A stretch of DNA of 12,826 bases from Nannocystis exedens (GTDB taxonomy: Bacteria; Myxococcota_A; Polyangia; Polyangiales; Polyangiaceae): positions 1 to 12,826 of the forward strand of contig CAMBEV010000065.1 of assembly GCA_945865595.1 (NCBI GenBank). The letters run 5' to 3'. Under the pieces are notes generated by a model. The model was not told the DNA's origin and made no database searches. It worked only from the letters and a program-made list of their open reading frames with translations. Position numbers and translations under genes: made by a program. Positions 1,717-12,826 of this stretch are shown here, one piece after another. Within the stretch, counting starts at the first letter, position 1; the number at the start of each line of letters is the position of its first letter.

Positions 1717-3156
1717 TTACCGATCAAACACCGCGGCGCCTGCGCTCATCGTCCACGGGCCGGTGCCGCACGTCCCTTGTGCCCGACGTTCGACGGCGAC
1801 GCTCGCGCCGGAGTTGCGGCGTTGGACAAGAAGCGTGAAGTCAGTCACGGCGGCAACGCGATCCCAAGCGTCACGCTCGTTGCGATAGAAGGTTTCGAAG
1901 CAGTAAACGTCGTCGTTCGTGATGTCAGAGAACTTGCGGTTGATGGTTCCGCTACTTGACGGAATGTACCGGTAGAGACCCGCCGTTACGCTGGGCACCG
2001 ACGTGCCGATCGAGAAGTCGTAGACGTTGTCCGTAAAAGTGCTCGGGCCGAGGTACAATTGCGGCCCTTCGCTTTGCGTGACCACTGGCGCAAACCAGTT
2101 GCCTTGCGCGCTGCCCACAACGTCGTGATAGACGCTGCCGCAACGCGGCGCTTCGGTGCGCAACACCGTTCGGCTTGAGTCGAGCAGCAAGTTGAACATC
2201 GATGTTTTGTCCGGCGAGTCGGGTAAGTACTCAAGCGCACATGCCGTGTAGCAGCGCGCGAACACGTTGCCACCGCCAGCGCAAAAGCGATCCGGTTTTG
2301 CGAACGCAGATTTACCGGTCGGATTGCGGTAGTCGCGAAATCCGATGTCGAGACCGCGACCGGCTTTGACCACGCCGATTTCTTCACCGGCTTTCACCGA
2401 CACGCTCATGTCGACCTGACACAGCGTTCCACCGCCGACACCCGGCACGGCAACCGGTACACATGCCTTCATGGCGTTGAGCAACGCGCTATGCGTGACG
2501 CTCGTTATGAGGCCGATGTAGCCCTGCACTTCGACGCCGCAGAGCTCGTACGACACGGTGTACACATCTTGAAACGGGTCACCCCCAAAGCCGGAGCTCG
2601 CGTCTTCATCATAGTCGCGCCACATCACACGGGTCATCCGCAACGAGGCAGGCGCAACGACCGAGATGGGCGTCGTTCCTGCCTTGGTGGCGATGCCCAT
2701 GTGCGGCGACGGGAAGGTGTGATCGGGCGGCACAAGCAAGCCGAGCGGCGCCATGCTTTGGATGTTGGCGAGTGCGACCGGCCATTGGGTGAGTTGGTAG
2801 CCGTTGCAGGAGGGTGCGTCCGCTGCGTCCTTCGCAGCATCAGTCCCGGCTGGCCCACTGTCGCCACCGGGCGCATCGTGGGGGGGCTGGTTCGACGATG
2901 CCTCATTGTGTGCGTCGTTTGCCCACACGTCTGGCTTCGCCGACGCGTCAACCGCAGGCGGCGCGCTCGCATCGCGCACCTCGGTGGCATCGGGCGCACC
3001 GGCGGCATCAAGCGTGCTTGCCGCAGTGGCATCAGGTGCACCCGTCGACGGCGGGGCGGAGTCGAAGCTCTCGGCGTCTGTGCCTGTGGGCGCTGGATCA
3101 GCGGGTGGCGAGCAGCTCAAAACCGCGATCGCGCACAGAATGGAGATCCCCCGCAT
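1717..3156 (-). CDS. secreted lipoprotein (479 aa) with an ~150-aa Ala/Pro/Asp/Thr-rich low-complexity linker and a ~320-aa C-terminal globular domain of unknown function
   Basis: The minus-strand ORF starts with MRGISILCAIAVLSCSPP, a signal peptide with a lipobox. The amino-acid composition is protein-like, whereas the overlapping + strand ORFs (2491..3309, 2804..3166) are Arg-rich nonsense. The C-terminal domain has many Cys and a weak M23/LytM-like stretch VKAGEEIGVVKAGRGLDIG with no HxH. Confidence 0.8.
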   Translation of the reverse strand: MRGISILCAIAVLSCSPPADPAPTGTDAESFDSAPPSTGAPDATAASTLDAAGAPDATEVRDASAPPAVDASAKPDVWANDAHNEASSNQPPHDAPGGDSGPAGTDAAKDAADAPSCNGYQLTQWPVALANIQSMAPLGLLVPPDHTFPSPHMGIATKAGTTPISVVAPASLRMTRVMWRDYDEDASSGFGGDPFQDVYTVSYELCGVEVQGYIGLITSVTHSALLNAMKACVPVAVPGVGGGTLCQVDMSVSVKAGEEIGVVKAGRGLDIGFRDYRNPTGKSAFAKPDRFCAGGGNVFARCYTACALEYLPDSPDKTSMFNLLLDSSRTVLRTEAPRCGSVYHDVVGSAQGNWFAPVVTQSEGPQLYLGPSTFTDNVYDFSIGTSVPSVTAGLYRYIPSSSGTINRKFSDITNDDVYCFETFYRNERDAWDRVAAVTDFTLLVQRRNSGASVAVERRAQGTCGTGPWTMSAGAAVFDR

Positions 3157-3482: not shown

Positions 3483-3989
3483 TCAGGGAGCGCGAAGACT
3501 GAGGGTGCCGAGGTAGTCGCGCTTTCCTACGGTCACGCCGTTGTGACGGAGAATTGCGTACGCGTGCGACAGGTGGAAAAAGAAGTTCGGAACCGCATGC
3601 TCAATGAGGTAGTCGGCGCCCGTCATGGTCTTGCCCTCCCAGCGGGGTTGGGTCACCGAGCGCGTTGCGGCGCCTTCGAAGTCTTTCGCCGCGTAGCTGT
3701 CGAGATACGCGATGACCGAACGGACGCGAGCACGGAGTTCGTCGAGCGTCTGCTCCGTGTCGGCATGTGACGGGGCATCCTTGCCACTGAGGCGCGAAGC
3801 AGCAAGCTTGGCGGTGTCGCACGCGATCTGAATCTGGCGTACGAAGGCAAACTGATCAGGCGCGAGACGCAACGCCAGGAAAAGGTTTGGGTCGAACGAC
3901 TTTGCCTGCGCATGGGCGGCGGCGGCATCGAACCACTTGTCAAGTTGGGCGAGTTGCTTCTTCATCTGACCAAAAATTGCGTAGTACAT
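3483..3989 (-). CDS. DUF1993-family protein (169 aa)
   Basis: The translation from M123 of the listed 290-aa ORF (MYYAIFGQMKKQLAQLDKWFDAAAAHAQAKSFDPNLFLALRLAPDQFAFVRQIQIACDTAK...IEHAVPNFFFHLSHAYAILRHNGVTVGKRDYLG) matches the DUF1993 consensus end to end. The upstream 122 codons of the ORF are Ser/Ala/Gly-rich and are rejected. Confidence 0.85.
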   Translation of the reverse strand: MYYAIFGQMKKQLAQLDKWFDAAAAHAQAKSFDPNLFLALRLAPDQFAFVRQIQIACDTAKLAASRLSGKDAPSHADTEQTLDELRARVRSVIAYLDSYAAKDFEGAATRSVTQPRWEGKTMTGADYLIEHAVPNFFFHLSHAYAILRHNGVTVGKRDYLGTLSLRAP

Positions 3990-4065
3990 GGGCCGCAGTC
4001 TACCCACTTCCGGCGCGCCAGCCACGGTCGTCTTTTCCAACCACGCCCCAGCGCATCCATGCACA

Positions 4066-5415
4066 ATGTTCGGCATGCGGTACGTCCTTGGGGTCCTTCT
4101 CTTGTCGGGCTGCACCTCGTCATCCCCGACGTTCCCCGCTCCAGTCGACATGGGCCCCGCCGATGCGACACCCTGGCCTGAAGCCACCGTGGTCTCCGAT
4201 GGCGGCGACGCCGGAGCGTCATGCGTACCCTCAGCGGTTACCGAAGACGATCTAACCCCCGCGCGCGAAGCCTGCTCATTCGCAGCAGGCGCGAAACCTT
4301 CGTTCACGCTTCGCATGCCCACCGCCATACCGATCAAACACGTCATCGTGGTCATGAACGAAAACCGTTCCTTCGATCACTACCTCGGCAAGCTTGGAGA
4401 GGCCGGCAAAGCAGACGTCGACGGATGGTCAGCGTCCTTTACGAATCCCGACAAGAACGGCGTCAAGGTTTCGCCCGAACACCTTTCGAGCGCGTGTCTG
4501 AGTAGCGACATCCCGCACGGGTGGACCGCGATGCATGCGCAATGGAACGACGGCGGCATGAACGGCTTCGTCACATCTGCAGCCAGCGACGCGGGAAATG
4601 GCCACCACGCGCTCGGGTACTACGATCAAACCGACCTGCCATTTTACTACTGGCTCGCAAAGACCTTCGCGATCTCTGACCGTTATTTTTCTTCGGTCAT
4701 CGGACCCACGTGGCCGAATCGCCAATACCTCTACATGGGCTCCTCGTACGGCAACAAGTCAACGAGCGGAACCAAAATAACCGACGAGCCAACGATCTTC
4801 GACGCGCTGACGAAGGCCGGCGTCTCGTGGAGGGTTTACACCGATGGTTCACCTCGCCAAGATTGCATCGGGTGGAGCAAAGGGCACGACGGCACCGCGA
4901 AGTACGCAGAGTTCGTTGCGGACCTCAAAGCGAGCACGCTTCCGCAAGTCGTCTTTCTCGACCCCTCCGGCGACAATCAAGACGAGCACCCACCGAACAG
5001 CGTCTACACGGGCGAGCAATGGGCACGCGATGTGATGGCCAACGTGGTGTCGAGTCCATTGTGGTCAACGACCGCGCTATTTTATACCTACGACGAAGCA
5101 GGCGGCCTTGCCGACCACGTGCCGCCACCGAAGGCATGCCTTGCGGATCCGACGCAGACCGCGTTCGATCGACTTGGCTTCCGCGTTCCTATCTACGTCG
5201 TGTCGCCCTGGGCGCGGCCTGGATACGTTTCGCATCGCACACACGAGCACGCGTCGATTGTCCGCTTCATCGAGACCGTGTTCGACCTTGGTGCGCTCAC
5301 CGCACGCGATGCAAACTCGGATGCCATGCTCGACATGTTCGACTTCACGTGTCCGGCACTCGCTTCAGTGCCGATGGCACCCGAGGCCCACACCGGGAAA
5401 GCGGATTGCAAATGA
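4066..5415 (+). CDS. phosphoesterase-family lipoprotein (phospholipase C / AcpA-type acid phosphatase family, PF04185-like), 449 aa
   Basis: The hallmark VMNENRSFDHYLGKL is present, and the whole protein has a family-like pattern (DIPHGW, YYDQTDLPFYYWLAKTFAISDRYFSS, PNRQYLYMGSS, TYDEAGGLADHVPPP). The start is taken at MFGMRYVLGVLLLSGC, a signal peptide with lipobox; ATG 4075 is also possible. The ATG at 3988 is rejected. Confidence 0.9.
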   Translation: MFGMRYVLGVLLLSGCTSSSPTFPAPVDMGPADATPWPEATVVSDGGDAGASCVPSAVTEDDLTPAREACSFAAGAKPSFTLRMPTAIPIKHVIVVMNENRSFDHYLGKLGEAGKADVDGWSASFTNPDKNGVKVSPEHLSSACLSSDIPHGWTAMHAQWNDGGMNGFVTSAASDAGNGHHALGYYDQTDLPFYYWLAKTFAISDRYFSSVIGPTWPNRQYLYMGSSYGNKSTSGTKITDEPTIFDALTKAGVSWRVYTDGSPRQDCIGWSKGHDGTAKYAEFVADLKASTLPQVVFLDPSGDNQDEHPPNSVYTGEQWARDVMANVVSSPLWSTTALFYTYDEAGGLADHVPPPKACLADPTQTAFDRLGFRVPIYVVSPWARPGYVSHRTHEHASIVRFIETVFDLGALTARDANSDAMLDMFDFTCPALASVPMAPEAHTGKADCK

Positions 5416-6269
5416 AGCTCTTGGCTCGATTCGCCTTTGTATCTTTGGCACTGGCGGCATGCAGCGATGTGTCCACGGACGTAACCGCCGACGCTGCCAC
5501 CGACGCTGCCACCGACGCTGCCACGGACGTGACCGCTGACGCTGCCACCGAGGCAGCGAAGGCCGACACCAGCACCGACGCGAAGCCGGACGCCACACTC
5601 AGCCCCAGCGCGCTGTGCACGGTTGAGGACATGACCACGCTCTACGCAGGCGTCTTGCCAACCAACCCTTATGCCAAGCAGCCGGCGCCGAGCGCGTGCC
5701 TCAAAAAGGCGCACGACGTCATCATGGTGCTCGGCTGCCCGAACAACAAAGACGGCACGGCCGCAACGTGCCAGACCAAGCGCGCCGACATCGCGGTTGC
5801 GCTCTCGAAGGCGGGCTACGCAGATCGCTTCATCGTTTCAGGGGCTGCCGTGCACAACGCCTACGTCGAGGCCGAAACGTTGGCGACGCTTCTTGTGGCA
5901 CGTGGCGTTCCAAGCGCGAACATCATTAAGGAACCGAAGGCCAACCACACCGACGAGAACATCTATTACAGCTCGCGCATCATGCTCGACAAAGGGTGGA
6001 CCACGGCACTCGTCGTTTCCGATGATCCTGGGCACCTCATCATGTCCGCGGTGTGCGACGCAAACTGCTGCGTTGAACTCGGGCGCCTGACGGTGTTCGA
6101 TTTTCCAGTGTCGGGTGGCGCTGAGATCGCCGGCCACTACACCCTTGTACCGCCGAGCACCGCGGTGTCCAAGAGCGAGTGCGATCAGATTAAGCAAATC
6201 CTGAAGGTCATGTGCGTCAACTTGTCGAGCCGGCTTTCGTGCAAAGACGATTTCAAGTTGAAACTCTGA
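5412..6269 (+). CDS. DUF218 (YdcF/ElyC/SanA-like) domain lipoprotein, 285 aa
   Basis: Its ATG overlaps the upstream TGA (ATGA at 5412-5415). The N-terminus MKLLARFAFVSLALAAC is a lipoprotein signal. A (T/V)DAA/TDVTA repeat linker follows. The DUF218-like core is ADRFIVSGAAVHNAYVEAETLATLLVARGVPSANIIKEPKANHTDENIYYSSRIMLDKGWTTALVVSDDPGHL. Confidence 0.85.
   Translation: MKLLARFAFVSLALAACSDVSTDVTADAATDAATDAATDVTADAATEAAKADTSTDAKPDATLSPSALCTVEDMTTLYAGVLPTNPYAKQPAPSACLKKAHDVIMVLGCPNNKDGTAATCQTKRADIAVALSKAGYADRFIVSGAAVHNAYVEAETLATLLVARGVPSANIIKEPKANHTDENIYYSSRIMLDKGWTTALVVSDDPGHLIMSAVCDANCCVELGRLTVFDFPVSGGAEIAGHYTLVPPSTAVSKSECDQIKQILKVMCVNLSSRLSCKDDFKLKL
5478..5549 (+). repeat. six 12-nt tandem units (gacgctgccacc and variants) encoding a TDAA/TDVTA linker
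   Basis: Direct repeats read in the DNA at 5478-5549, inside the DUF218 lipoprotein gene. Confidence 0.7.
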
Positions 6270-7423: not shown

Positions 7424-9430
7424 ATGCCTGAAGGTTTGCTGCCGGTTGTCATTGTTGTGGGCGCGATCTCGATCGTGCTGTTCGGTTTGTTGATCATGGT
7501 CGCGCGCTTCTACCGTCAGGTAGAGCAAGGCCGCGCACTCATCATCAACACGATGCGCACTGAACCCGTGGTGACCTTCACGGGGGCCATCGTGTATCCG
7601 ATTATCAATCGCGCCGAGGTGATGGACCTCTCCGTCAAGACCATCGAAATCGATCGGCGTGGGAAAGAGGGCCTCATCTGCGCCGACAACATTCGCGCCG
7701 ACATCAACGTCACCTTCTTTGTGCGCGTCAACAAGACCGAAGCGGACGTCCTTCGCGTCGCGCAATCGCTCGGCTGCCTCCGCGCAAGCGATGGCGCAAC
7801 GTTGAACGAACTCTTTGGCGCCAAGTTTTCAGAAGCGCTGAAGACTGTCGGCAAGCACTTTGAGTTCGAGAAGCTCTATACGAACCGCGACGACTTCAAA
7901 GACAAAATCATCGAAGTGATCGGCAAGGATCTTAACGGTTTTATCCTCGACGACGCTGCGATCGACTTCCTCGAGCAAACGCCGCTTGAAGCCCTCGACC
8001 GCGACAACATCATGGATGCCGACGGTATTCGCAAGATCACCGAACTCACCGTGAAGCAAAACGTACAGACGAATTTGCTTCGTCAGGCAGAGCGCATGGA
8101 GATGGGCAGCCAAAACCTCAACGCCGATGAAGCCGTGTTTCGGTTTGAGCAACGAAGGGCCGAAGCCGAAGCGAAGAAGAACAAGGACATCTCGATTGCG
8201 CAGTCCCGCGAGCAAAACGAGGCACTTCGTATTGCAAGCGATGAGCAAAAGAAGACCGCCTTGGTCAACCACAAGAACGAAGAAGAATCGCTCGTGGCCG
8301 CCGAAACCAAAGCGCGCGGCGTCGCCATCGCACAGAAGAATCGCGAGAAAGAAGTGGCCGTCGAAACCGAGCGCGTCGAGCGGGCCCGCATGCTGGAAGC
8401 GATCGGCCGCGAGCGCGAAGTCGCACTCGTGAGCATTTCGCGCGACAAAGAAGTCGAGCTGCAAAAGAAAGAAATTGCCGACGTCGTGCGCACGCGCATC
8501 GCCGTTGAAAAAACGGTCGCGGCCGAAGAAGAGCAAATCAAAGATCTGCGCAATCGCTCACAGGCCGAGCGCGAGAAAGACGTCATCCGCATTGGCGCCG
8601 AAGCGAGAGCTCAAGAGCTGTCCGTGAAGGCAATCAAGGCCGCAGAGGCTTCGCAAGAGGCCGCAAAGTTCAAAGCGATGGAGACGGTCGTCACTGCCGA
8701 GGCCGAGCTCGAGGCTGCCGAGAAGATCGCGCGTGCGAAAATTCGTGCCGCCGAAGGTCTGCAAGCCGAAGTCGCAGCGCCTGGTCTCGCCCAAGTGCGC
8801 GTACGCGAGGCAGAAGCTGTGGCCTATGAGAAGCAGGGCATCGCAGAGGCGGTCGTGGTCGATCGCAAGGGCCAAGCTGAAGCCGCGGCATATGAGAAAC
8901 AGGGCGTTGCAGAATCGGTCGTGGTTGAGCGAAAGGGCGCGGCCGAGGGAAGCGCCATCCGCGAACGCACGACCGCCGAGGCGAAGGGCATCTCTGAGAA
9001 GGCAGCGTCGATGAAAATTCTCGACGAAGCCTCGCGTGGCCACGAAGAGTTCCGCCTGCGCCTTGAGAAAGACAAGAACGTGGAACTCGAGACCATCCAC
9101 GCCAAGAAGGACATCGCCGCCGCGCAGTCTGAGATTCTTGCGAAGGCGTTTACGAACGCGAAGTTCAACATCGTGGGTGGCGATGGTCAGTTCTTCGATC
9201 GATTTGTCAAAGCGGTCTCCGTCGGACAGGCGATCGACGGAGCCGTCGACCAAAGCGATACGATCCGGTCGCTGCTGAGCGAATTTACCGGCGCGAAGAA
9301 CGGGGACTCTCACCTGTCCGATTTAGTCGCGCGGTTTTCAAAGGGCGACGGCGGCGCGCGGGCCGAGCTGTTGGCGCTCGTGCAAGGGTCGTCGAAATCG
9401 GGCAAGACAGTCTCCTCGGCTGGCGAGTAA
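7424..9430 (+). CDS. yqiK: flotillin-family SPFH/Band-7 protein (YqiK/FloT-like), 668 aa
   Basis: The N-terminus has a TM helix followed by ARFYRQVEQGRALIINTMRTEPVVTFTGAIVYPIINRAEVMDLSVKTIEI...ADINVTFFVRVNKTEADVLRVAQSLG, which matches the E. coli YqiK N-terminus. A long Glu/Ala/Lys-rich coiled-coil (EA-repeat) region follows. TAA at 9428-9430. Confidence 0.95.
   Translation: MPEGLLPVVIVVGAISIVLFGLLIMVARFYRQVEQGRALIINTMRTEPVVTFTGAIVYPIINRAEVMDLSVKTIEIDRRGKEGLICADNIRADINVTFFVRVNKTEADVLRVAQSLGCLRASDGATLNELFGAKFSEALKTVGKHFEFEKLYTNRDDFKDKIIEVIGKDLNGFILDDAAIDFLEQTPLEALDRDNIMDADGIRKITELTVKQNVQTNLLRQAERMEMGSQNLNADEAVFRFEQRRAEAEAKKNKDISIAQSREQNEALRIASDEQKKTALVNHKNEEESLVAAETKARGVAIAQKNREKEVAVETERVERARMLEAIGREREVALVSISRDKEVELQKKEIADVVRTRIAVEKTVAAEEEQIKDLRNRSQAEREKDVIRIGAEARAQELSVKAIKAAEASQEAAKFKAMETVVTAEAELEAAEKIARAKIRAAEGLQAEVAAPGLAQVRVREAEAVAYEKQGIAEAVVVDRKGQAEAAAYEKQGVAESVVVERKGAAEGSAIRERTTAEAKGISEKAASMKILDEASRGHEEFRLRLEKDKNVELETIHAKKDIAAAQSEILAKAFTNAKFNIVGGDGQFFDRFVKAVSVGQAIDGAVDQSDTIRSLLSEFTGAKNGDSHLSDLVARFSKGDGGARAELLALVQGSSKSGKTVSSAGE
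8814..8945 (+). repeat. internal 66-nt tandem duplication in the flotillin gene (EAVAYEKQGIAEAVVVDRKGQA / EAAAYEKQGVAESVVVERKGAA)
   Basis: Two consecutive imperfect 66-nt units read in the DNA at 8814-8879 and 8880-8945. Confidence 0.7.
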
Positions 9431-9436
9431 GCCGCG

Positions 9437-12400
9437 ATGTCAGAGGCAGAACTCGACGGTGGCAGCTACGATGTCATTCGAAGGCGGCTCGTTGAGCAAG
9501 CAACAGAGCTTGGCGCCAAGGCCGAAGCGCTCAACAAGAAGCGCACGCAAGTCTTTGGCGGTACCGAACTTCAGCTCATCGCAAACGAACGCGTCCGCAC
9601 CGAAAACAACTGCGTACCTCGCGACATCGTCAGCATCGCGGGCCACTTGCTGTTCGGCTTTCAGGTGTTCATCGGGCTGAAAACAGAGACGTCCGTTGCC
9701 GACGTCCTCAGCGTCTACAAATTTGTCAAGAGCCCGAACCAAGGCGCTGACGGCGGCTTCGACCTTTCGGCTCAAGCCTTCGAAGGCCCTGCCGGGTTTC
9801 TTGCGGACGAAGCCTTCGCGAAAGATTTTCGAGACACCTTTCGGTACACGAAGGAAGCACGGCTTCTGCAGCTTCGACGAACCGAGACGCGACTGCTTGC
9901 CGCTGTCCAGGTGGGCGCAACGGCGCGCGATGCCAAGGTCTTCCGATGGAGCATCGACGCTGCAGGGCGCCTTGCCTACATGGATGCGCGCGGCGATGAC
10001 GACAACGCTTTTCCTCGATCGCACGGCTTTGTGTGGACCCCCACCGGCCGCGACGATCATGTGGGCGGCGCACACCCACACGTCAATATTCTTGACCAAC
10101 TTTTCGTCGAGACCGTCGGTGGCGATCTCACCATCAAGGTCGAGAACAACACGAAGACGGGCGTCGGCATTTATCGCGAGTCCGTCGATGACGCGAACCA
10201 AACGCTCGACGATGCCGACATTGCATACGCCCAAATCGGCGCGCTGATCTTGCTCAAGATTCTGCCGTATCGCGAAACGCAATACAGGTACTTCGTTTTC
10301 AACACGCGCACAAAAACGGCCAAGCGCATCGACGCCATTGGCCAGGCGTGCGTCGAGCTGGCGGAAGACCAGGGCATTGTGTTTCCTGGTGGTTACTATT
10401 TGAAAGACGGCGAATGCCGCGTCTTCGACAGTGACACGGCAGCCATGGAGCTCGAGCGTACGGTGCGCGCACCCAACGGAGAAGACGTTCTCTATGTCTT
10501 CTACCGACGCGAGCAAGGGCAGTACCTGCTCTTGCCCTACAACCTCATTCGCAAAGAAGTCGCAAATCCGCTGCGATGCAACGGCTACAGCTTGTTCGCG
10601 GACGGAACGATGGCGCTGTTCCGTGCGGAAGAAAGCGCAGAGCCCACGCGCGTTCATGCACTGCAAGTCTGGCGCACGCCATTTGCCACACTCGAGCATG
10701 CCGCAGCAGCACCCGCCGGAAACAGCTACCTCGCGAAGGTCGGTAACGCCGAACTCGTGCGTGGCATCAGCGAAGCGCTGACCCTCAAGAAGCTCGCGTC
10801 GAGTGATGCACCGACACGTCTCACCTACGAAGACGCGGTCGCAACCGCCACGCGTATCAGCCACGCGTACTATTGGCTCGGCCATGCGGAGACCGAAAAT
10901 CTCGCCGCGAGCGTCAGCGCGATCAAGAAGACGAGCGAACTCATCATCGACGAGTTCGAAAAGATGCTCGCCAGTCGACGGCGTGCCGACGAGGCGCTTG
11001 CGCTCGCAACGACGACGCAGACCGGTCTGCTCGCACGGCTAAGACCTGATGACCTTTCGACGGTCGAAGGTTTTCTCGAAGCGCTCACCGAGCTGCGCAA
11101 GCAACGCGGTGCGCTGATCACATTGAAGGAACTTCGCGGCGTTGACGTTGCGCGTGTTGCGGCACTCGACGAAGAGGTGAAGAAGCACGCCGAGTCGGTC
11201 AGCGATGCGTGCGTTGGGTTCTTCCTCAAGCAAAACGCCTTCGCGCCGTTGCTTGATCGCCTCGACGGGCTCACGCGTGACGTCGAGGCCGTAGCCAAGG
11301 TTTCGGACCTCACGCCGTTTGGGGAAGAGCTCGCACGCGTGCAGTCCGGGTTGACGATTTTGGCCGAGGTGGCAAGCGGCCTCAAGGTCGATGACGCAAC
11401 AGCGCGCACGCAAATTCTTGATGGCGTGAGCGCTGCATTCGCGCAACTCAATCGCGCCCGATCGGGCTTTGACGCCAGAAAACGCGACCTCGCAACAAAA
11501 GAAGGCCGCGCCGAATTCGGCGTTCAGTTTAAACTTTTTGGCCAAGCCGTGGTCAGTGCATTGGCCATCTGTGACACGCCCGAGCGCTGCGACGAAGAGC
11601 TCTCACGCTTGCTCATCGAGCTCGAGACGATCGAAGGTCGCTTCGGCGAGCTGGATGAATTTGCGCCCGATCTTGCGACGAAGAGAGAGGATGTCAGTGA
11701 AGCGCTGGGGACCCGTCGACAGCAGCTGGTCGATGAGCGTCATCGGCGCGCGCAGAATCTGTTCTCTGCCGCCGAGCGCATTTTGGCCGGCGTGGGTCGC
11801 AAGGCCGCGACACTCAAGACCGAGTCCGACCTGCAGGCCTATTTTGCTGCAGACCCCATGGTTCACAAACTTGACGCTCTCGCGGAGCAGCTGCGCGCGA
11901 TTGGCGATTCGGTGCGTGCCGATGAAGTGAACGCGCGAATCAAGTCGCGCAAACAAGAGTCGTTGCGACAGCTTCGCGACAAGGTCGACCTCTCTGAGGG
12001 AAGCGACGACACCATCAAGCTCGGCAACCATCGCTTCAGCGTGCAAAAGCAAGCGCTCGAACTCGTGCTTGTGCCGCGCGATGAAGTCATGACGGTTCAC
12101 CTCACCGGCACAGATTTTTACGAGCCGGTCGTGGACGACGAGCTCGATGGCGCGCGCAACCTGTGGGACGAAACGCTCGTTTCAGAATCGTCCGAGGTTT
12201 ATCGCGGGGAATACCTCGCCTACCTCATGTTGCGCGACGCGGAGCAGAACCGCGGATTGTCTGACAGCGGGCTTCGATCGGCAGTGGTCGCGGGCACACT
12301 TGAAGAGGTCGTGCGCACGTATGCCGCCGATCGTCTCGACGAAGGATACGAGCGTGGCGTGCACGATCACGATGCTGCGCTTATTCTCGAACGTTTGCTC

Positions 12401-12826
12401 GCGTTGCGCGAATCTGTGGGCCTACTTCGCTACGTGCCCGATGCGCGGGCGTTTGCGACTTTCTTCTTTGCGGAACAAGAGAATGCAACTCGCGAACTTC
12501 TCGTTCGACGGGCGCGCAGTGCAGGCAACCTTGTCGCGAGATTCGGTCATGGTGCTGCCCAAGACGATCTCGCTCGCGAGCTAGAAGCGCAGATGCACGG
12601 GTCTATCGCCGCGGGCAAACTCGAGGCCTGGGCGCTTGACGTTCCAGGGGCGTGCCGATTTCTGGTGCAACAGATCGCACGCGATCCGTTGTCGTTTACG
12701 ACCTCGCATGCGGCCGATGCGATCGCCAATGCGCTGCTCGCTGAGCTGGATGCACAAGGGGCTCGGCGCGCGTTCGAAGAAGACCTGCGCGCACTTGAAA
12801 AGCATGCGTCACTTCGACTCGCACTC
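9437..12826 (+). CDS. very large uncharacterised protein, 3'-partial (at least 1,130 aa in the window; runs off the window end)
   Basis: Frame +2 is open without any stop from ATG 9437 to position 12826, checked codon by codon. The ATG lies 6 nt after the flotillin TAA, in the same frame. Composition is protein-like, with GC-rich third positions on this strand. The ORF track omits it only because it has no stop in the window. No P-loop or other motif that I recognise. The first ~430 aa look like a mixed-fold domain with aromatic-rich stretches (YRYFVFNTRTKTAKRID, LYVFYRREQGQYLLLPYNL). The rest is a long, mainly alpha-helical, Ala/Leu/Glu/Arg-rich region. Confidence 0.8.
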   Translation, partial: MSEAELDGGSYDVIRRRLVEQATELGAKAEALNKKRTQVFGGTELQLIANERVRTENNCVPRDIVSIAGHLLFGFQVFIGLKTETSVADVLSVYKFVKSPNQGADGGFDLSAQAFEGPAGFLADEAFAKDFRDTFRYTKEARLLQLRRTETRLLAAVQVGATARDAKVFRWSIDAAGRLAYMDARGDDDNAFPRSHGFVWTPTGRDDHVGGAHPHVNILDQLFVETVGGDLTIKVENNTKTGVGIYRESVDDANQTLDDADIAYAQIGALILLKILPYRETQYRYFVFNTRTKTAKRIDAIGQACVELAEDQGIVFPGGYYLKDGECRVFDSDTAAMELERTVRAPNGEDVLYVFYRREQGQYLLLPYNLIRKEVANPLRCNGYSLFADGTMALFRAEESAEPTRVHALQVWRTPFATLEHAAAAPAGNSYLAKVGNAELVRGISEALTLKKLASSDAPTRLTYEDAVATATRISHAYYWLGHAETENLAASVSAIKKTSELIIDEFEKMLASRRRADEALALATTTQTGLLARLRPDDLSTVEGFLEALTELRKQRGALITLKELRGVDVARVAALDEEVKKHAESVSDACVGFFLKQNAFAPLLDRLDGLTRDVEAVAKVSDLTPFGEELARVQSGLTILAEVASGLKVDDATARTQILDGVSAAFAQLNRARSGFDARKRDLATKEGRAEFGVQFKLFGQAVVSALAICDTPERCDEELSRLLIELETIEGRFGELDEFAPDLATKREDVSEALGTRRQQLVDERHRRAQNLFSAAERILAGVGRKAATLKTESDLQAYFAADPMVHKLDALAEQLRAIGDSVRADEVNARIKSRKQESLRQLRDKVDLSEGSDDTIKLGNHRFSVQKQALELVLVPRDEVMTVHLTGTDFYEPVVDDELDGARNLWDETLVSESSEVYRGEYLAYLMLRDAEQNRGLSDSGLRSAVVAGTLEEVVRTYAADRLDEGYERGVHDHDAALILERLLALRESVGLLRYVPDARAFATFFFAEQENATRELLVRRARSAGNLVARFGHGAAQDDLARELEAQMHGSIAAGKLEAWALDVPGACRFLVQQIARDPLSFTTSHAADAIANALLAELDAQGARRAFEEDLRALEKHASLRLAL

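Follow-up and report, generated by a model that had tools for sequence, protein, structure and literature searches.

What is encoded by the giant open reading frame (ORF) that follows a flotillin-like gene in Nannocystis exedens, and what would such a protein do next to a membrane-microdomain module? The frame occupies the end of the DNA studied here, a stretch of 12,826 nucleotides (nt) of contig CAMBEV010000065.1 (assembly GCA_945865595.1) referred to below as the window, which had first been annotated from its sequence alone. As indicated by our comparative analysis, the frame is almost certainly the 5' part of a gene for a DUF3686-type AAA+ ATPase, standing in an operon context of yqiJ-like, yqiK-like and ATPase genes. 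The overall best explanation of its function, with an estimated probability of about 0.55, is that the ATPase would act as an ATP-driven remodeller of flotillin membrane assemblies.

Extent of the giant gene

Translation of the plus strand from position 9437 to the window end gave 1,130 codons with zero stops, in agreement with the initial annotation, which had described a stop-free frame of at least this length beginning 6 nt after the flotillin stop codon. The TAA at 9428-9430 that terminates the flotillin-like ORF is also the nearest in-frame upstream stop, and hence the ATG at 9437 is the earliest possible start of the giant ORF. Its absence from the program-made ORF list was correctly attributed to the lack of a stop within the window, since the list omits ORFs that run off the end. 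The guanine-plus-cytosine (GC) content of the plus frame by codon position (0.69/0.43/0.68) is of the coding type, and the protein matches a large family (E=0, thousands of proteins). The four minus-strand ORFs that cover the same interval (9440..10885, 10870..11451, 11039..11545 and 11603..12100) are listed exactly as first reported and had been taken for antisense shadows; we come to the same conclusion, because none of them gave a Pfam match, whereas the plus frame belongs to a large family and has coding-type GC.

To extend the gene, as had been suggested, the full-length flotillin-like protein was searched for as an exact match, which retrieved three public contigs (L001 to L003: a metagenome-assembled genome (MAG), GCA_947485185.1, an ENA assembly and a Logan assembly). 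Only three of the 12,826 positions distinguish these contigs from the window (6589 A/G, 7900 A/G and 10974 G/T), and the last 327 nt of the window are matched identically; the substitution at 10974 alters residue 513 of the ATPase, which is Ser in the window and Ile in the contigs. On the public contigs the gene ends at a stop at window-equivalent position 14983 and encodes 1,848 amino acids (aa). The window holds the 5' 61% of it, and the other 718 codons, located past the window end, encode what remains of the helical scaffold, followed by the AAA+ module (~aa 1240-1560), a linker made of helices and a β-barrel that resembles PilZ (~aa 1740-1845). The next gene, coding for an α2-macroglobulin-like protein, is convergent, so that the ATPase gene is the last of its transcription unit. 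The closest relatives are found in Labilithrix and Polyangiales.

The flotillin and giant ORFs share one reading frame and are separated by TAA GCC GCG before the ATG, such that read-through of a single stop would fuse both proteins. A read-through fusion was rejected, as a common frame occurs in only 18 of 76 orthologous pairs, no more often than the one in three expected by chance.

Family and catalytic motifs of the ATPase

The initial annotation had called the frame unannotatable and recognized no family for it, a view which is overturned by the Pfam results. The DUF3686 profile (PF12458) was matched over positions 1-448 of 448 with 632 bits against a cutoff of 25 (E 5e-190), and DUF7902 (PF25472) was matched at aa 600-683 (window 11234-11485; 89 bits, E 2e-25). 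In the full 1,848-aa protein AAA (E 1.5e-7), AAA_22, AAA_5 (E 1.3e-5; 25.7 bits, above its cutoff of 22) and RuvB_N (E 2e-4) were detected around residues 1271-1404. More than 6,700 relatives were found among 8,000 candidates scored in a large protein database, where the NCBI name of the family is "DNA repair ATPase". At the 50% identity level the family has 1,347 representatives, which are typically 1,600-1,930 aa long and collinear with the query, including aa 1-1130 encoded in the window. The architecture of DUF3686, DUF7902 and a C-terminal AAA domain is that of the family, and the same domain set is present in 120 of 120 listed homologues.

The AAA+ module is encoded ~330-1,000 nt past the window end, on contig L001, and displays the hallmarks of the AAA+ superfamily: Walker A (SPPGYGKTT, K1291), Walker B (MLYLDD, D1353/D1354, followed as DDIQH), a sensor-1 stretch (AGNPYTE, N1401) and an arginine (R1419 in LANRAD, NR(A)D), together with an αβα core carrying a helical lid. 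Across 29 aligned members, whose identity to the query is only 24-48%, the Walker A, Walker B, sensor-1 and arginine motifs are at least 90% conserved. Such conservation across divergent members argues for an active enzyme, and the giant protein can be predicted from its sequence to be an active AAA+ ATPase. The earlier observation that the frame has no Walker or GTPase motifs holds inside the window and fails for the full protein; the motifs were not seen because the AAA+ module lies outside the window. A Kyte-Doolittle scan of the ATPase detected no membrane segment, the Pfam scan detected no DNA-binding or nuclease domain and no peptidase family, and the NCBIfam scan of the operon proteins gave no match.

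Predicted fold

The AlphaFold model of aa 1-1130 (mean predicted local distance difference test, pLDDT, of 81) consists of an N-terminal helix (aa 11-40), a β-rich domain (aa 46-413), a first helical scaffold with helices up to ~58 residues long, a small β unit with flanking loops of low confidence and a second helical domain (Table 1). This layout agrees with the ~430-aa N-terminal domain and long helical region perceived by the initial annotation; in total the helical scaffold amounts to ~800 residues, DUF7902 included. In Foldseek searches against the PDB the β-rich part matched β-propellers only (prolyl-oligopeptidase propeller, Elp1, YncE, PON1 and WDR91) with E values of 1e-4 to 1e-5 and ~10% identity, and the DUF3686 domain models as a β-propeller. 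A dynein-like motor was rejected, since the matches to dynein heavy chains (template modelling (TM) score ~0.1) reflect long helices only.

In the model of aa 1063-1848 (pLDDT 80), a β-hairpin precedes the sensor-1 strand of the AAA+ core; a helical lid and linker are also present, and the chain ends in a β-barrel. The best PDB matches of the AAA+ module were the MoxR-type NorQ (E 9e-8, target TM score 0.56), RuvB (E 9e-8) and CbbQ (E 6e-7), followed by FtsH, spastin, Rix7, MgsA and MCM; the matches to NorQ, RuvB, CbbQ and FtsH reached a probability of 1.00. PDB sequence searches revealed no solved relative of the propeller and scaffold, the flotillin or the YqiJ-like protein, and gave weak matches to classical AAA proteins and RuvB around Walker A only.

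The terminal β-barrel (aa ~1740-1848; L001 17230-17557) has a sub-threshold match to PilZ at residues 1759-1837 (Pfam E 0.15), and PilZ (PF07238) is recorded for ~15 of 120 close homologues. Inspected by eye, its motifs are degenerate ('DVIEHGG'), with neither RxxxR nor the canonical DxSxxG motif for cyclic di-GMP (c-di-GMP). The barrel may represent a degenerate or repurposed PilZ domain; a PilZ-like C-terminus is seen mainly in Myxococcota.

These data bear on the role in DNA repair that the Pfam and NCBI names would assign to the protein. Apart from the names, this role could draw on the weak RuvB_N match and the similarity to the RuvB fold, the sole link to DNA repair, which results from the generic AAA+ core that both proteins share. 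NorQ, a MoxR ATPase that does not act on DNA, matches as well as or better than RuvB, domains for DNA binding or cleavage were not detected, the conserved partners described below are membrane proteins and not repair genes, and no paper backing a repair role was found. We therefore regard a DNA repair function as very improbable. The label "DNA repair ATPase" is without support in this analysis, and the annotation would gain from correction.

The YqiJ-like and flotillin-like partners

The two genes upstream of the ATPase had been labelled flotillin and NfeD by the initial annotation, and both labels withstood profile comparison. On their own, the two window proteins gave no Pfam match even at E 10, Band_7 and NfeD included. 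The 668-aa protein aligned with E. coli YqiK from residue 1 (BLASTP E 4e-28), and a profile of 29 syntenic orthologues matched YqiK with 99.9% probability (hhalign, E 5e-33). Band_7 is detected in six of the 29 orthologues and in roughly one third of close homologues, and sources name them YqiK. The protein has one transmembrane segment at residues 8-26 and the layout of SPFH2 (YqiK) proteins, with an N-terminal membrane anchor, an SPFH domain and a long Glu/Ala-rich coiled coil.

The 243-aa protein was similar to E. coli YqiJ by BLASTP (E 1e-3), and a profile of 31 syntenic orthologues matched YqiJ across the transmembrane and C-terminal regions (hhalign 94.5%, E 8e-8), with YqiJ_N (PF21001) matched by 2 of the 31. 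Its three hydrophobic segments (14-32, 101-119 and 131-149), its C-terminal β-domain, putatively OB-like, and its conserved position upstream of an SPFH2 gene place it in the NfeD2/YqiJ-YuaF group. Thus, the profile matches to YqiJ and YqiK identify the pair as a divergent yqiJ-yqiK (NfeD2-SPFH2) pair as in Hinderhofer et al. 2009 (PMC2636767).

Conservation of the gene order

Relatives of the ATPase were sampled by a pattern scan in which each GTDB species was represented by one genome; at least 474 genomes with a relative were identified, and synteny was counted over the best 80 loci, derived from Myxococcota, Actinomycetota, Gammaproteobacteria, Planctomycetota, Acidobacteriota, Lentisphaeria and some other MAGs. 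By tblastn, a flotillin homologue was present on the same strand as the ATPase gene in 76 of the 80 loci and directly upstream of it in 75. Upstream sequence was long enough to be informative in 77 loci, from at least six phyla, and all but two of these have the flotillin gene in that position. Of the four loci without flotillin, three have less than 350 bp of upstream DNA. A YqiJ-like gene was detected in 69 of the 80 loci. In at least 12 loci the flotillin stop and the ATPase start overlap by 4 nt, which indicates translational coupling of the two genes. The proposed coupling of the giant frame to the NfeD-like and flotillin genes is in this way conserved well beyond Myxococcota. All-against-all ORF clustering of 81 loci (the 80 surveyed and L002) showed only the YqiJ-like, flotillin and ATPase genes to be widely conserved, with no fourth gene; as greedy ORF calling in high-GC loci also caught antisense shadows, the cluster counts underestimate the linkage, and the tblastn counts are the reliable ones.

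Gammaproteobacterial operons are longer, with DUF2170 (CesT/Tir-like, 6 loci) and PspA-like (8 loci) genes upstream and rhomboid (8 loci) and PLD/HKD (9 loci) genes downstream. A nine-gene version is carried by the 425-kb Pseudomonas fluorescens plasmid pQBR103 (NC_009444.1, 85434-100852; locus L085) in the order PspA, rhomboid, DUF2491, DUF350, DUF1190, glutathionylspermidine synthase, hypothetical protein, SPFH and 'DNA repair ATPase'; here the PspA-side genes adjoin a YqiJ-like/SPFH/ATPase core, which links the flotillin/ATPase module to polyamine-type PspA operons. No PspA, CesT/Tir or PLD gene was found in the window or in the flanks on L001 and L002 (22 kb read). In one Oleiphilaceae locus (L081, 7828-9888) the flotillin orthologue contains one in-frame stop, which could reflect a pseudogene or a sequencing error.

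The first reading of the window had also offered defence as a possible function, in which case the three genes would form an anti-phage or other conflict system, with a large NTPase driving an SPFH/NfeD sensor or effector in the membrane. Precedents exist, as known defence systems include Band-7 effectors and large NTPases of several domains whose sensors are propellers or repeats. In our surveys, six proteins of the locus scanned against PADLOC-DB 2.0 gave no match at E 0.01, no phage-encoded family member was found, and among 72,556 plasmid records only 13 carried a member, most of these being megaplasmids or chromids. Moreover, the family is broadly and collinearly conserved, and it is found next to housekeeping or envelope genes and not in defence islands. 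A defence role is thus considered highly unlikely; among the functions first guessed, envelope stress and membrane remodelling fit best, while defence gained no support from the PADLOC, phage and plasmid surveys.

Relation to described systems

Operons joining the CesT/Tir-PspA dyad to three proteins, among them a YqiJ/YuaF protein with three transmembrane segments, and in some cases to PLD, have been described by Ravi et al. 2024 (mSystems, PMC11237479; bioRxiv 2020). The order given in their Table S3 is YqiJ-YuaF, a Band-7 protein with coiled coil and flotillin domain, and a protein with β-propeller, coiled coil and AAA-ATPase (PMC11237479). More widespread than the full form are abbreviated operons that consist of the genes for the flotillin protein and YqiJ/YuaF and, in some cases, the ATPase gene, and ATP-dependent assembly or remodelling of sub-membrane complexes was proposed for the system (PMC11237479). 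The window locus shares the gene order, the three architectures and the membrane topologies of these operons, and the CesT/Tir(DUF2170)-PspA and PLD contexts of the extended form occur among the relatives of the window ATPase itself. These matches in architecture, order, topology and extended contexts place the window ATPase in the same family as the ATPase of PMC11237479, where no Pfam accession is given for it, such that identity with the Dokdonia example of that study rests on architecture and context. The window locus is an 'abbreviated' instance of the system; it is devoid of the CesT/Tir-PspA dyad of the full form and, unlike the published example, adds an upstream Ion_trans_2 gene and the PilZ-like C-terminus. 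The operon type has therefore already been described bioinformatically (PMC11237479), and our locus adds a further member. Hence the proposal that the giant protein is a candidate new partner of the SPFH/NfeD module is well supported as regards the partnership and no longer holds as regards novelty. Literature searches for DUF3686/PF12458, for 'DNA repair ATPase' with flotillin, and for YqiK and YqiJ with an ATPase retrieved no papers, and no experimental study of a flotillin/YqiJ/ATPase operon was found; in a 2025 review the Band-7 partners of PspA are still called 'undetermined'.

HflK/C-FtsH is an SPFH cage enclosing an AAA+ protease. The window system resembles it in the pairing of an SPFH-family membrane assembly with an AAA+ ATPase, an analogy of working principle. 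FtsH, a member of the classical AAA clade, is anchored in the membrane and has a zinc protease domain, whereas the window ATPase is soluble, has no protease domain, bears a propeller and a long helical arm, and has an AAA+ core closer to NorQ and RuvB. The window ATPase resembles the MoxR family (NorQ, CbbQ, RavA) in the best structural match of its AAA+ core, in its AAA_5 match and in the motif 'NP..E.G..F.(I)P..L.NR' after sensor 1. MoxR proteins are ~250-500 aa long and work with a VWA-domain partner, in contrast to the window ATPase with its ~1,240 N-terminal residues of propeller and scaffold. The two upstream genes are homologous to YqiJ and YqiK and arranged in the same order as E. coli yqiJ-yqiK and B. 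subtilis yuaF-floT, but the E. coli operon ends after yqiK and has no ATPase. SPFH2/NfeD2 operons were surveyed by Hinderhofer et al. 2009 (PMC2636767), with no mention of an ATPase partner.

Proposed function of the ATPase

In the mechanism that we propose, the AAA+ modules would probably form a ring, like NorQ/CbbQ and RuvB, to which they are closest in structure, and the propeller and helical arm would dock this ring onto the cytoplasmic face of an oligomeric flotillin-YqiJ membrane assembly. ATP hydrolysis could then remodel the assembly, by building it, dismantling it, or freeing client proteins or lipids. The module may act in membrane maintenance and envelope stress together with PspA-type ESCRT-III proteins, whose gene is part of the operon in gammaproteobacteria and presumably lies at another locus in the present genome. 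The remodelling logic would be that of FtsH in HflK/C cages or of Vps4 on ESCRT-III, although the window ATPase has no protease domain, membrane anchor or homology to Vps4. That flotillin itself is the direct substrate is close to an even call, if slightly short of one.

Several observations weigh against ATP-driven remodelling of flotillin. Walker B has D-D instead of the usual D-E, and the helical regions and inter-domain geometry are uncertain in the models (predicted TM score, pTM, of 0.52). MoxR-type ATPases normally operate with a VWA partner, and no gene for one was conserved in the 81 clustered loci. The E. coli yqiJK operon, having no such ATPase, implies that flotillin function does not generally depend on it. 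Two loci depart from the common arrangement: in a Labilithrix locus (L028, 9914-15703) the 10 kb of upstream DNA contain no flotillin and carry an aldehyde dehydrogenase gene instead, and in a Labilithrix/Myxococcales locus (L005, 9923-15706) flotillin lies 6.4 kb upstream with OmpA-, DUF11- and CopD-like genes in between; these may be paralogous or rearranged copies. Finally, each of the mechanistic steps proposed here is based on synteny and fold analogy.

The principal competing explanation assigns the ATPase to PspA-type ESCRT-III polymers, on which it would act as a non-homologous analogue of Vps4, with flotillin and YqiJ serving as a membrane platform only. This is suggested by the co-operonic PspA-like and CesT/Tir-like genes in 6-8 gammaproteobacterial loci and pQBR103 and by the ESCRT analogy raised by Ravi et al. 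for PspA-linked AAA+ proteins (PMC11237479). Furthermore, a 2025 review knows of no Vps4-like ATPase for bacterial PspA. Against it, PspA is absent from the window locus and from most of the 80 loci, where flotillin and YqiJ are near-universal neighbours, and the ATPase, with NorQ and RuvB as its nearest folds, shows no MIT-like domain and no similarity to Vps4. PspA as the substrate is accordingly rated unlikely, and the remodelling of flotillin assemblies is retained as the preferred explanation.

Features and neighbouring genes of the window

The features of the module are listed in Table 1. The Ion_trans_2 protein ends 1 nt before the YqiJ-like start, and homologues adjoin the module in ~6 Myxococcota loci; those in L006 and L012 share its strand, whereas those in L021, L022, L026 and L030 are encoded on the other one. 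The gene is possibly a lineage-specific operon member outside the conserved core, and may provide a lineage-specific ion-channel link to the flotillin module. Just upstream, at 3988-6269, a phosphoesterase gene (phospholipase C/acid phosphatase family, E 4e-79) and a DUF218 gene overlap by 4 nt and are co-directional with the module; they were rejected as operon members, as they are not conserved next to it. A lipid-hydrolase theme may nevertheless recur, with the phosphoesterase upstream here and PLD in the gammaproteobacterial operon versions.

Table 1. Positions of the ATPase gene, its encoded domains and the adjoining module genes in the window
Feature	Position	Strand	Basis
Ion_trans_2 (K+-channel pore-like) protein, 127 aa	6293..6676	+	Pfam Ion_trans_2 E 3e-7
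YqiJ/YuaF-type (NfeD2-like) inner-membrane protein, 243 aa	6678..7409	+	BLASTP, hhalign, 3 transmembrane segments
Divergent YqiK-type flotillin (SPFH2), 668 aa	7424..9430	+	BLASTP, hhalign, 1 transmembrane segment
6-nt spacer from flotillin stop to ATPase start, tightly coupled junction	9431..9436	+	Sequence
Giant AAA+ ATPase gene, codons 1-1130 of 1848	9437..12826	+	Translation, contig extension, Pfam
DUF3686 domain, aa 24-479	9506..10873	+	Pfam PF12458, AlphaFold, Foldseek
First helical scaffold, aa 431-852	10727..11992	+	AlphaFold; contains DUF7902 (PF25472)
Small β-strand unit between helical regions, aa 859-897	12011..12127	+	AlphaFold
Second helical domain, aa 901-1130, continuing to the AAA+ module	12137..12826	+	AlphaFold

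Further away, a 479-aa ORF on the minus strand (1717-3156), called as a gene on the public contigs, gave no Pfam, NCBIfam or PADLOC match and has no homologue in the 80 surveyed loci. The convergent gene downstream of the ATPase (L002 17593-22007, minus strand; more than 1,470 aa) encodes a protein that resembles bacterial α2-macroglobulins and contains a thioester-like YPYECNEQ motif. Promoter and terminator scans revealed no σ70-like sites, and the terminator-like matches fall within coding sequence; the Rfam scan of the window gave no match.

Significance for bacterial flotillins

The roles of bacterial flotillins are not yet settled, and the same holds for the build-up and turnover of the large assemblies that they form in membranes. 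A soluble ATPase whose gene immediately follows that of flotillin in almost every locus surveyed offers an experimental handle on flotillin function, and the value of the present analysis lies in this system rather than in the window locus itself, for which it is mostly a clarification. In its most specific form, put forward tentatively, our proposal is that the ATPase may be a dedicated non-proteolytic, ATP-driven assembly or disassembly machine for bacterial flotillin cages, docking via its β-propeller and helical arm and in Myxococcota maybe tuned by the PilZ-like domain. If true, this would make it the first regulator of an SPFH2 microdomain that consumes energy, with a Vps4-like role for flotillin.

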